DNA of 31,903 nt from a virus (taxonomy: Duplodnaviria > Heunggongvirae > Uroviricota > Caudoviricetes). The notes under the pieces were generated by a model that saw only the letters and a program-made list of their open reading frames with translations, made no database searches and was not told the DNA's origin. How positions within the stretch are numbered: position 1 is the first letter of the stretch; each line of letters starts with the position of its first letter. Positions 9,772 through 13,643 of this stretch are shown piece by piece. Location: the IMG/VR virus record IMGVR_UViG_648276649_000004; one strand, 5' to 3'. A program made the translations under genes and the position numbers.

Positions 9772-10842
9772 ATGGCTAACGCCTGGCTCAGATTATGGCA
9801 TGACATGCCAAATGACCCTAAGTGGCGAACAATTGCCAGGGTGTCAGGGCAGCCAATTGCAACAGTGATGGCAGTGTATATCCACCTCCTGGTGAGCGCG
9901 TCACGAAATGTCACGCGAGGTCACATTGAGGTCACGACAGAAGATTTGGCAAGTGCGCTCGACGTGACAGAAGAGGTAATTGATTCAATTTTGCAGACGA
10001 TGCAGGGGCGGGTACTTGATGGTGATTTAATCACTGGATGGGAAAAACGCCAGGTGCTTAAAGAGGACAACGGCAATATTTCGCAAACCGCAAAATCTCC
10101 TGCAGAGCGCAAGAGGGCGCAGCGAGAGAGGGAAAGAAAGCGGGAACAAAATGGCGATTGTCACGGCGCGTCACGAAATGTCACGCATATGTCACGACGA
10201 GTCACGACAGATAAAGATACAGATAAAGATACAGATCAAGAAGATCAAAACACTATGGTCCATGGCGTAAAAAACGCCACGAACCAGGCAGGGGATGTTC
10301 AGACCGTCAATCTTGGTCAGCCAGCAGGCACGACACCGGAAGCCGATTCAGCGTATGCGCTGAAAGCCGATTCGGGCGCTGTGCAGCAGGTGATGACCGC
10401 AAGGCCGGAGCAATCACACCAACTGCAGCAGCCCGAAGCCGATTCCGCCATTCAGCGGGAAGCCGATCGGGTAGTCCCGGAAAACACCGGGCAGTCTGTG
10501 GGACGAGTGGATTATCCGGATGTGTTCGAACAGGTCTGGCGGGAGTACCCGTTGCGTGCTGGGGCAAACCCGAAGAAATCCGCTTTCAGTGCCTGGAAGG
10601 CCAGATTACGCGAGGGGGTGCCACCAGAGGCCATGCTGGATGGCGTGAGGCGTTACGCAAGATACTTGGCGGCTACCGGGAAAACGGGAACGGAATTTGT
10701 TCAGCGAGCGACGACGTTTTTTGGACCGGACCGGAATTTTGAGAACCCCTGGTTGCTCCCGGTAAGCGGCACGAACAACCAGCGTTGTGTGAATCATATT
10801 TCTGAACCGGATAACGAAATTCCGCCGGGCTTCAGGGGGTAA
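9772..10842 (+). CDS. ydaU: Replication initiation protein, lambda O-like (YdaU-like but longer); contains internal iteron arrays
   Basis: ATG at 9772 preceded by an AGAGG ribosome-binding site. N-terminal region MANAWLRLWHDMPNDPKWRTIARV... followed by a Lys/Arg/Glu-rich linker and a C-terminal domain; two arrays of 10-bp-periodic TCACG repeats lie inside the coding sequence, as in O-type genes. Confidence 0.7.
   Translation: MANAWLRLWHDMPNDPKWRTIARVSGQPIATVMAVYIHLLVSASRNVTRGHIEVTTEDLASALDVTEEVIDSILQTMQGRVLDGDLITGWEKRQVLKEDNGNISQTAKSPAERKRAQRERERKREQNGDCHGASRNVTHMSRRVTTDKDTDKDTDQEDQNTMVHGVKNATNQAGDVQTVNLGQPAGTTPEADSAYALKADSGAVQQVMTARPEQSHQLQQPEADSAIQREADRVVPENTGQSVGRVDYPDVFEQVWREYPLRAGANPKKSAFSAWKARLREGVPPEAMLDGVRRYARYLAATGKTGTEFVQRATTFFGPDRNFENPWLLPVSGTNNQRCVNHISEPDNEIPPGFRG
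9898..9940. repeat. Iteron array 1: four TCACG-type repeats at 10-11 bp spacing
   Basis: Direct reading: gcgTCACGaaatgTCACGcgaggTCACAttgaggTCACGacag. Confidence 0.55.
10158..10232. repeat. Iteron array 2: five TCACG repeats at 10-11 bp spacing, followed by an A/T-rich tandem repeat (candidate origin)
   Basis: Direct reading: tgTCACGgcgcgTCACGaaatgTCACGcatatgTCACGacgagTCACGacag, then agataaagatac repeated twice. Confidence 0.55.
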
Positions 10843-11639: not shown

Positions 11640-13643
11640 ATGATTATGAGTGAAAATGATACAACCCCAAAGAAGTCTACAAGCCAGATTAACAAAGCGG
11701 TATTCTTTACATCTGCTTTGCTAATTTTCCTTCTTGTCGCCTTTGCCGCCGTATTCCCGGATGTCGCCGACAAAAATTTTAAACTACTTCAGCAACAAAT
11801 CTTCACGAATGCCAGCTGGTTCTACATACTTGCTGTGGCCCTGATTTTACTGAGCGTCACGTTCCTTGGACTCTCACGTTACGGTGATATAAAGCTGGGC
11901 CCAGACCATGCGCAGCCTGATTTCAGCTACCACTCCTGGTTCGCGATGCTTTTTTCGGCAGGGATGGGGATCGGCCTGATGTTCTTTGGCGTTGCCGAAC
12001 CTGTGATGCATTATCTTTCGCCACCTGTCGGCACTCCAGAGACCGTTGCGGCAGCGAAGGAAGCCATGCGCCTGACGTTCTTCCACTGGGGTCTGCACGC
12101 ATGGGCAATTTATGCCATCGTGGCGCTGATTCTGGCCTTTTTCAGTTACCGTCACGGTCTGCCTTTAACGCTGCGTTCTGCGCTCTATCCCATTATCGGC
12201 GATCGCATTTACGGGCCTATAGGCCACGCGGTTGATATCTTCGCCGTGATAGGCACTGTCTTTGGCGTTGCAACATCGCTGGGTTACGGTGTATTGCAGG
12301 TGAATGCCGGTTTGAACCATCTTTTCGGCGTGCCCATCAATGAAACGGTACAGGTCATTTTGATCGTGGTCATCACGGGGTTAGCGACGATTTCGGTGGT
12401 GTCCGGCCTGGACAAGGGAATACGCATCCTGTCTGAGCTTAATCTGGGCCTGGCGGTGTTGCTCCTGGCGCTGGTCTTGTGCCTGGGTCCCACTGTGCTT
12501 CTGCTGAAGTCATTTGTGGAAAATACGGGTGGTTATCTGTCGGAACTGGTGAGTAAAACGTTCAACCTTTACGCGTATGAACCCAAGTCGAGCAACTGGC
12601 TGGGGGGCTGGACATTATTATACTGGGGATGGTGGCTTTCATGGTCGCCGTTTGTAGGTATGTTCATTGCACGCGTTTCCCGCGGCAGGACAATTCGTGA
12701 GTTCGTGACTGGCGTGTTGTTTGTTCCCGCCGGCTTTACGCTCATGTGGATGACGGTGTTTGGAAACAGCGCCATCTATCTCATCATGAACCAGGGCGCC
12801 ACTGACCTCGCCAATACCGTTCAGCAGGATGTTGCGCTTGCCCTGTTTAATTTCCTGGAGCATTTCCCGTTCTCTTCCGTGCTGTCATTCATTGCAATGG
12901 CGATGGTCATCGTCTTCTTTGTAACGTCTGCTGATTCGGGGGCAATGGTTGTGGATACTCTGGCATCAGGTGGGGTGGCAAACACGCCCGTCTGGCAGCG
13001 AATTTTCTGGGCATCGCTCATGGGCGTTGTTGCTATTGCCCTGCTGATCGCAGGGGGGCTGAGTGCGTTGCAAACCGTAACGATAGCGAGTGCATTGCCC
13101 TTCTCAGTTATCTTATTAATATCCATATACGGACTGTTAAAAGCCCTGCGTCGGGATTTGACCAAGCGTGAAAGCCTTAGCATGGCGACTATTGCTCCTA
13201 CGGCTGCACGTAACCCAATTCCCTGGCAGAGAAGGTTACGCAATATCGCGTATTTGCCGAAGCGCTCTCTTGTGAAACGTTTTATGGACGACATTATCCA
13301 ACCCGCCATGACGCTGGTTCAGGAGGAACTTAACAAGCAGGGAACGATAAGCCACATCAGTGACGCCGCCGAGGATCGTATTCGCCTTGAAGTCGATTTG
13401 GGCAACGAGCTGAATTATATATATGAAGTGAGGCTTCGCGGGTATAACTCACCGACCTTCGCGCTCGCTGCGCTGGATAATGATGAGCAGCAGAGTGAAC
13501 AACATCGATATTATCGCGCTGAAGTCTATCTCAAAGAGGGCGGCCAAAATTATGATGTAATGGGCTGGAATCAGGAACAGCTGATTAATGACATACTGGA
13601 CCAGTACGAAAAACACCTGCACTTCCTGCATCTGGTTCGTTAA
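11640..13643 (+). CDS. BCCT-family transporter, BetT-like (choline / glycine betaine type), 667 aa
   Basis: Multi-span membrane protein with BCCT hallmarks (GIGLMFFGVAEP, WTLLYWGWWLSWSPFVG, ARVSRGRTIREF) and a BetT-like cytoplasmic C-terminal extension ending ...DILDQYEKHLHFLHLVR. Confidence 0.85.
   Translation: MIMSENDTTPKKSTSQINKAVFFTSALLIFLLVAFAAVFPDVADKNFKLLQQQIFTNASWFYILAVALILLSVTFLGLSRYGDIKLGPDHAQPDFSYHSWFAMLFSAGMGIGLMFFGVAEPVMHYLSPPVGTPETVAAAKEAMRLTFFHWGLHAWAIYAIVALILAFFSYRHGLPLTLRSALYPIIGDRIYGPIGHAVDIFAVIGTVFGVATSLGYGVLQVNAGLNHLFGVPINETVQVILIVVITGLATISVVSGLDKGIRILSELNLGLAVLLLALVLCLGPTVLLLKSFVENTGGYLSELVSKTFNLYAYEPKSSNWLGGWTLLYWGWWLSWSPFVGMFIARVSRGRTIREFVTGVLFVPAGFTLMWMTVFGNSAIYLIMNQGATDLANTVQQDVALALFNFLEHFPFSSVLSFIAMAMVIVFFVTSADSGAMVVDTLASGGVANTPVWQRIFWASLMGVVAIALLIAGGLSALQTVTIASALPFSVILLISIYGLLKALRRDLTKRESLSMATIAPTAARNPIPWQRRLRNIAYLPKRSLVKRFMDDIIQPAMTLVQEELNKQGTISHISDAAEDRIRLEVDLGNELNYIYEVRLRGYNSPTFALAALDNDEQQSEQHRYYRAEVYLKEGGQNYDVMGWNQEQLINDILDQYEKHLHFLHLVR

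Follow-up and report, generated by a model that had tools for sequence, protein, structure and literature searches.

Replication origins located inside the gene of their own initiator are textbook knowledge in the phages lambda, P22 and SPP1, and the label "replisome organizer" already exists. In lambda (as in P22 gene 18, 434 and phi80) the origin, ori, lies in the part of gene O coding for the linker past the DNA-binding N-terminal domain, and consists of iterons, a directly adjoining A/T tract that is A-rich and strand-asymmetric, and a palindrome, in this order. The same place and order of elements were found in a 31,903-nucleotide (nt) stretch of viral DNA (IMG/VR record IMGVR_UViG_648276649_000004, Caudoviricetes), which will be called the window and which is a Rac-type prophage of Escherichia coli. 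Its replication initiator gene contains two arrays of the short word GTCACG and an A/T-rich tract, and these elements probably constitute a bipartite iteron replication origin of this Rac-like prophage, embedded in its own initiator gene.

The likeness to lambda extends to the coordinates within the gene. The lambda iterons occupy nt 349–433 and array 2 of the present gene nt 389–435, which is nearly the same position; the former are followed by ACAAAAGAAAAAAGAAAAGATTA and a palindrome around an EcoRI site, and the latter by the tract (nt 436–485) and an inverted repeat (10256–10286 of the window). Furthermore, in both systems the N-terminal domain and the iterons are exchanged as one specificity module, and the gene order is cro, cII-like, initiator. 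Nevertheless, lambda has four inverted-repeat iterons of 18–19 bp, about 20–24 bp apart, whereas here direct words of 6–7 nt recur every 10–11 bp, one per helical turn. Unlike lambda, the present locus also has another array, located some 230 bp upstream in the part coding for the DNA-binding domain, no P gene next to the initiator gene, and an initiator without homology to O. A first-pass annotation of the window had described a lambdoid origin architecture; the sequence supports an origin in its own initiator gene, but the repeats, being short direct words, are not palindromic iterons of the lambda type.

A second system for comparison is the replisome organizer G38P of the Bacillus phage SPP1, with oriL. 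In SPP1, the organizer gene itself contains the origin repeats, with an A/T-rich region beside them, and the lactococcal phages TP901-1 and Tuc2009 have their origins inside rep genes. The present initiator receives the same name as the SPP1 protein in RefSeq, and it shows a winged-helix fold like that of the N-terminal domain of DnaD. However, the Pfam match remained below the cut-off, the repeat words differ and the present hosts are Proteobacteria; additionally, the second binding region of SPP1, oriR, is tens of kb away, versus 230 bp here.

Systems with two iteron arrays include the ori and crr of the satellite phage P4 (8-nt TGTTCACC words), incC and incA of P1 and F, and the ori of the Staphylococcus aureus pathogenicity islands (SaPI), where two sets of iterons flank an A/T-rich region. 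The present locus resembles them in having short direct words for binding by the system's own initiator, in two arrays set apart from each other that either cooperate through looping or regulate through handcuffing (binding and interplay being presumed here). Their initiators are nevertheless unrelated (the primase-helicase alpha, RepA and the SaPI Rep helicase), and their arrays are outside or flanking the gene, or kilobases apart, whereas both arrays are here in one open reading frame (ORF), in frame, with a conserved separation of about 190–250 bp.

Finally, the Rac prophage has been reported to have an active origin (PMC3945230). The prophage of E. coli K-12 that carries this origin, oriJ, is of the same type as the one in the window and has the same integration site (ttcA; intR/recET/kilR/sieB). 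Its replication module, ydaU/ydaV, encodes a different initiator family and a DnaC-like loader; the window has a different, exchanged replication module, and the data on oriJ therefore do not transfer to it.

Two phased arrays and an A/T-rich tract lie inside the initiator gene

The features of the locus are the following (window coordinates).

9772–10842, + strand: replication initiator gene, 356 amino acids (aa), "phage replisome organizer"/phrog_3729, from the ORF and a PHROG match
9900–9936, + strand: iteron array 1, GTCACG at 9900, 9910 and 9931 and GTCACA at 9920, spacing 10/10/11 bp
9963–9968, − strand: one iteron copy in inverted orientation (+ strand CGTGAC), some 27 bp past array 1, coding for D-V-T
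10160–10206, + strand: iteron array 2, GTCACG at 10160, 10170, 10180, 10191 and 10201, spacing 10/10/11/10 bp
10207–10256, + strand: A/T-rich tract, its top strand purine-rich, ACAGATAAAGAT x2.9 followed by CAAGAAGATCAAAACAC, proposed DNA-unwinding element
10229–10247, no strand: module boundary between the N-half of the gene (domain, arrays 1 and 2, tract) and the C-half, which in E. coli prophages undergo recombination independently of each other
10256–10286, no strand: inverted repeat with a 13-bp stem and a 5-nt loop (TGGTCCATGGCGT / ACGCCACGAACCA), immediately right of the tract

A pattern search detected 19 copies of GTCACG in the window, 9 of them inside one 310-bp region where about 0.1 would be expected by chance; the remaining 10 copies were spread over about 31.6 kb, versus a chance expectation of 10.9. 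A chance origin of the cluster is thus excluded. The first-pass annotation had counted four TCACG repeats in array 1 and five in array 2, at 10–11 bp and with about 260 bp between the arrays. The five copies of array 2 are exact, while the four of array 1 are three exact words and one variant (GTCACA, 9920); the spacings were confirmed, and the array starts are 260 bp apart.

The register shared by the two arrays is exactly 270 bp, that is, 90 codons, in frame. At this offset, 9896–9916 is identical to 10166–10186 (21/21 nt) and 9931–9941 to 10201–10211 (11 nt). Unequal recombination between these copies would delete codons 44–133, most of the DNA-binding domain, with the frame kept, and gene conversion between them could maintain the uniformity of the arrays.

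Array 1 codes for the end of a helix (aa 29–45) and a surface loop (aa 46–55; SRNVTRGHIEVT), and array 2 for a disordered linker (CHGASRNVTHMSRRVT). All three reading frames are used for the word, giving Ser-Arg, Val-Thr and Gly-His, and the peptides previously quoted for this region, SASRNVTRGHIEVTTED and GASRNVTHMSRRVTTDKDTDKDTDQEDQ, are correct.

The A/T-rich tandem repeat noticed after the second array was also recovered: 2.9 tandem copies of the 12-mer ACAGATAAAGAT span 10207–10241, with 95% matches, and open a tract of 68% A+T that codes for the acidic linker DKDTDKDTDQEDQ. This region is the GC minimum of the gene (GC 0.32–0.34 at 10200–10274), with an AT skew of +0.59 (A over T on the top strand). 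A reading of the GATAAA tract as DnaA-trios was dropped, as only alternate triplets fit the published trio consensus.

The repeat words are conserved as DNA

Loci related to that of the window were collected with degenerate peptide patterns favouring no codon. The sample comprised 46 loci from species-dereplicated genomes (among them Pseudomonas, Bordetella, Stenotrophomonas, Chromobacterium, Acidovorax, Serratia, Sphingomonas and Kordiimonas), phage P7869 and two E. coli variants. Synonymous codon usage was then compared in 22 non-identical genes of the GTCACG type, from genomes of 33–69% GC, with the following result.

Ser44, in repeat: TCA 21/22
Val47, in repeat: GTC 22/22
Thr48, in repeat: ACG 22/22
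Gly50, in repeat: GGT 22/22
His51, in repeat: CAC 22/22
Val54, in repeat: GTC 22/22
Thr55, in repeat: ACG 22/22
Arg49, spacer: CGA 9, CGC 7, CGT 5, CGG 1
Val32, Thr20 and Ser25, controls: 4 codons each
Gly79, control: 3 codons
Arg7, control: 6 codons

The codon of Val65, in the inverted copy, was GTG in 20/20 homologues. In array 2, the final Ser-Arg-x-Val-Thr was encoded with TCA (25/25) and GTC (25/25), against backgrounds of 0.14 and 0.20, and its spacer residue x varied even as an amino acid. The codons of the tract were similarly biased, with GAT in 132 of 134 Asp codons and AAA in 100 of 111 Lys codons, whereas the remainder of the genes uses them at 49% and 54%. These results bear out the proposal that DNA and protein are co-constrained: third positions are frozen in the repeats and saturated in the spacers and elsewhere. 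Together with the co-variation and association described below, they show that selection acts on the DNA words themselves, at two places, and is tied to the lineage of the N-terminal domain. The peptide ASRNVTRGH..VT, which ranks among the best-conserved segments of the protein and whose SR.VT part occurs again in the linker, is conserved because the DNA word is selected, and not vice versa.

The same word changes in both arrays

Periodic words of 10/11 bp were present in both array regions, at the same gene positions, in 41/47 loci, and the motifs inferred independently for the two regions agreed in 38 of these 41. Within the arrays, spacings of 10 bp (159 cases) and 11 bp (42 cases) were measured across 43 homologous loci. 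Across the family, array 1 lies 190–250 bp upstream of array 2, in the same orientation. The presence of two arrays in one gene, which had been regarded as unusual, is so relative to lambda, but it is the rule in the present protein family.

The word itself differs between lineages: it is GTCACG in most of them, GTAACG in L026, L030, L038 and L041, CGAACGC in nine loci and GTGACG in L047, and each lineage has the identical word in both arrays. The single inverted copy follows the word as well, from GACGTGACA in the GTCACG loci to GACGTTACA in L030 (inverted GTAAC), and both sequences code for Asp-Val-Thr. Scrambling of the repeats by synonymous changes in related prophages, named beforehand as an observation that would refute an origin, was not seen; the word co-varies between the arrays instead.

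Furthermore, the tract consensus (C/T/A)AGATAAAGATA(A/C)AGAT was found after array 2 in every specificity group. In essentially all members this tract has 60–85% A+T, even with the gene at 31% A+T, and some loci read its DNA in another frame (LDKIREE, QIREDKK).

When homologues of the window proteins were sought within 2 kb of the arrays in 20 non-E. coli GTCACG loci, the initiator N-terminal domain was found in 20/20 and was the only consistently shared protein (YdaT 1, C-half 1, and 0 for the repressor, the Cro-like protein and DUF977). The association of the arrays with this domain is therefore exclusive among the window proteins.

Among the loci that depart from this layout, L043 and L048 (Serratia, Pantoea) have the N-terminal domain without array 1, and palindromic repeats of the ACTACGTAGT type at the array-2 position (gene nt ~320–470). 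In both, the domain is fused to a different downstream segment (YVYYVATTDGDVVRVGISRNPW...), which by eye resembles a domain of the GIY-YIG/T5orf172 type.

The initiator has a winged-helix N-domain and no detectable homology to lambda O

The initiator matched PHROG 3729, "replication initiation protein", from end to end (2e-257), and its N-half and C-half also matched separate, different PHROGs. No match was obtained in a Pfam search at E<=0.01, and RefSeq names the protein "phage replisome organizer" or "hypothetical protein", with no origin annotated.

An AlphaFold model built on 74 homologues was confident for aa 1–95 (predicted local distance difference test, pLDDT, 91–98). The modelled domain consists of helices 2–14, 16–25, 29–45, 56–63 and 67–77 and a beta wing (78–86), and its fold resembles the winged helix of the DnaD N-terminal domain and of replisome organizers. 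After this domain, the model shows a basic helix (aa 110–128) and a long disordered linker, and the protein ends in a helical DnaD/DnaT-like domain. Homologues have insertions of 7, 13 or 22 residues in the array-1 loop, corresponding to extra whole repeats. Array 1 thus falls in a surface loop and array 2 in a disordered linker, parts of the protein in which any sequence is tolerated, and it is for this reason that one stretch of DNA can be gene and origin at once.

The name O-like given previously to this gene holds for its position and role, but no homology to lambda O was detectable in Pfam, hhalign or BLASTP comparisons. PF04492 was absent at E<=1 in the 74 family members, the hhalign probability was 0.04%, and the best BLASTP hit to lambda O (E 0.09) fell within the low-complexity linker; homology was rejected and the functional analogy kept. 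With PF09681 (Phage_rep_org_N) a sub-threshold alignment was obtained (E 0.13; 12.7 bits versus a cut-off of 23.3), which covers residues 5–122 and profile positions 1–118 of 121, and 3/74 members match this profile. Nothing significant resulted from hhalign against the single SPP1 G38P sequence, and a profile search of solved structures gave just a weak DnaT-domain match (E 0.19).

At the C-terminal end, the sequence S-x-P-D-x-x-I-P-P-G-F-R-G (aa 343–356, window 10800–10839) is kept among initiators with otherwise differing C-domains (P0035, P0041, P0042, P0050 and P0051). It matches weakly the last 24 residues of the primosomal protein DnaT (NF002770, E 7e-4, below cut-off), and may act as a short peptide by which the initiator docks onto the host primosome or helicase.

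The N-half, the arrays and the tract travel together

The module boundary at 10229–10247 was deduced from database matches to this region, of which H18–H19 cover just query positions 6–530 and H15–H17 just 548–1141. The junction among E. coli genomes is immediately 3' of the tandem repeat. The N-half (aa 1 to about 150) was found in Pseudomonas phage P7869 with 69.5% identity and the same arrays, followed there by another C-half and a primase/helicase gene. Other prophages of E. coli join the N-half to a C-half with a DnaT domain and have a lambda-P-like gene ("replication protein P") downstream. Conversely, the C-half is found in SfV orf39 and behind different N-domains in Stx phages. The N-half with arrays and tract is thus one recombination module.

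In the window, the initiator gene is directly followed by a DUF977 gene, and not by a gene for a P-type helicase loader. Phage SfV has a C-domain of the same type without a loader gene, so that the missing P gene is not a defect. These parts occur in functional phages: besides SfV and P7869, vB_EcoS-689R5 carries an initiator that is 98.9% identical to the one studied.

The inverted repeat at 10256–10286 lies in the C-half module, beyond the boundary of the N-module, and it was absent at the two loci inspected (L004 and L005). By analogy with lambda ori, where a palindrome is found at the corresponding position, the repeat may belong to the origin, although its membership is uncertain. It has a terminator-like score on the minus strand and was the sole notable item in a promoter and terminator scan, which gave nothing above the shuffled expectation.

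The N-domain was present in only 11 PLSDB records, none of them a small plasmid using it as sole replicon. Two of these "plasmid" records, H74 and H75 (CP137943.1 and CP124671.1; P. aeruginosa, ~50.9 kb), carry an N-domain of the P7869 type and probably represent circular phage genomes that were assembled as episomes, the genome of P7869 being 52.4 kb.

Proposed functioning of the origin and alternative explanations

Upon derepression, expression of the rightward operon (cro-like, YdaT/CII-like, initiator) would yield the 356-aa initiator, and the winged-helix module at the N-terminus of this protein would bind the GTCACG words, which are on one face of the DNA because there is one per helical turn. 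Occupation of the five-copy array 2 would give rise to an oligomeric nucleoprotein complex, a filament or a wrapped one, and this complex would destabilise the adjoining GATAAA/GATACA tract, acting as the unwinding element. The C-terminal DnaD/DnaT-like domain would then recruit the host helicase, no phage loader gene following, as in SfV. Array 2 and the tract would thereby correspond to a lambda-like core origin and array 1 to an auxiliary site. About 230 bp upstream and in the same orientation, array 1 would most simply be a second binding platform, looped or wrapped with array 2, that raises cooperativity or controls firing, either stimulating it like crr of P4 or restraining it like incA of P1.

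Several observations weigh against this proposal. The loci L033, L035 and L042 (metagenome-assembled genomes of Ventosimonas and Entomomonas) keep the tract without recognisable arrays, with up to eight DK repeats in the retained GATAAA tract of L042. The arrays are consequently not indispensable for keeping the gene, and the loss also implies that the protein fold does not need the repeat-coded motif; these loci may be decaying prophages, or have their origin elsewhere. The sequences of the codon test share a phylogeny, and counts such as 22/22 are not independent events, a concern that is mostly answered by the saturated control codons of the same sequences. The linkage between the arrays and the N-domain is partly unavoidable, the arrays being inside the domain's own gene, and is no proof that the N-domain reads them; moreover, the N-terminal domain of DnaD itself is mainly an oligomerisation scaffold and not a DNA reader. 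A search of the array region revealed neither DnaA boxes nor sites for other host factors, and DnaA-box counts were at chance across the window. Without head and lysis genes in the prophage, the origin may never fire productively in the present strain. Lastly, a literature search that included the exact iteron strings found no description of the repeats or of the family's origin, in a body of work whose older phage part was thinly covered, and a paper on the replication region of Stx phages mentions neither the arrays nor the initiator family.

As an alternative to an origin, the arrays could be autoregulatory or copy-control sites (operators, transcriptional roadblocks or handcuffing sites, like the incA/incC iterons of P1 and F), with the origin elsewhere. 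We regard this as unlikely, even though the iterons of P1, F and R6K double as control elements, array 1 has no adjoining A/T-rich tract and both arrays are in a transcribed gene, where the protein, once bound, would obstruct the transcription of that gene. The conserved, codon-biased A/T-rich tract, which is the hallmark of an unwinding element, always comes after array 2; the arrangement agrees with lambda ori position by position, and the pattern search detected no further GTCACG array anywhere in the 31.9-kb window. A control role for array 1 would, in addition, be compatible with the origin and no replacement for it.

It is quite improbable that the repeats bind another protein (a host factor, the YdaT/CII-like protein or DUF977) for packaging recognition, partition or the exchange of recombination modules. 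The module boundary immediately past the tract does make this region a recombination joint as well. Nevertheless, the 20 diverged GTCACG loci conserve only the initiator N-domain among the window genes, a single host factor is hard to reconcile with a word that changes between lineages sharing host classes, and neither the terminase nor the partition genes adjoin the arrays.

That the DNA repeats are a by-product of a required repeated peptide (SRNVT...VT), with selection on the protein, is scarcely credible in spite of the conservation of this peptide and its recurrence in the linker, since protein selection cannot fix third positions (22/22 in six codons) while invariant neighbours use three to six codons, the repeat encodes different residues in its three frames (SR, VT, GH), other lineages have another word and peptide in the same place, changed in both arrays (NATERGRTQ, CGAACGC), the tract keeps its DNA word in another frame in some loci, and array 2 is in a segment of predicted disorder.

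A further possibility, compatible with the bipartite origin, is that the latter represents a self-referential class. Array 1 codes for the loop (aa 44–55) of the very domain that would read the repeats, and the loop peptide differs with the word, SRNVTRGH accompanying GTCACG and NATERGRTQ accompanying CGAACGC. A change of iteron would then alter the site and the DNA-facing loop of the initiator together, and array 2 would follow by gene conversion over the in-frame 270-bp repeat. We hold this idea to be doubtful; if true, the specificities of origin and initiator would diversify by the same substitutions, and the gene would have a built-in generator of new, mutually incompatible replicon specificities.

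Beyond what is known of origins inside initiator genes, we found no description of short words in phase with the helical turn, of two arrays as an obligatory pair in one ORF, of the conserved GATAAA tract or of the four or more co-varying specificities across Proteobacteria, an earlier description being possible. The bipartite origin would allow the origins of an entire family of temperate phages to be defined from sequence. Its at least four iteron specificities are likely incompatibility groups, and the words could serve to predict cross-replication or interference among co-resident prophages. The locus is also a clean natural example of one DNA stretch under protein-coding and cis-acting selection at once, and its arrays, about 230 bp apart, would be a compact system for looping or wrapping in origin opening.

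Prophage setting and additional observations

The Rac-type prophage of the window is located beside ttcA and is 100% identical to that of E. coli strain 504838. Its first part contains intR, xisR, ralR, recT, recE, racC, kilR and sieB, followed in order by the repressor, the Cro-like, the YdaT/CII-like, the initiator and the DUF977 genes, a BCCT transporter gene, an insertion sequence (IS) element and tail genes. Head and lysis genes are absent, and the prophage is therefore defective.

The 1.2-kb region around the arrays was found over at least 80% of its length in 1646 of 5426 complete E. coli genomes (~30%), and roughly 950 homologues were recovered. The module was also present in at least 573 IMG/VR viral contigs, where the 80 copies returned by the scan were all near-identical E. 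coli sequences of no use for diversity, and in prophages of Pseudomonas, Bordetella, Stenotrophomonas, Sphingomonas and others.

A second repeat system was observed in the linker of the initiator C-half (window 10336–10467), in a segment of predicted disorder. It consists of four copies of (G/A)AAGCCGAT, at approximately 10339, 10363, 10435 and 10459, which belong to an imperfect direct repeat of 36 nt (10336–10371 / 10432–10467, 75% identical) that codes for PEADS.../PEADS....

Directly 3' of the replication module, inside the prophage, a gene for a 667-aa transporter of the BCCT family (window 11640–13643) looks like a cargo (moron) gene; in the Rac prophage of K-12 this place is presumably occupied by trkG. 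Downstream of the BCCT gene, a truncated DUF2254 gene and ISEc52 precede the tail genes.

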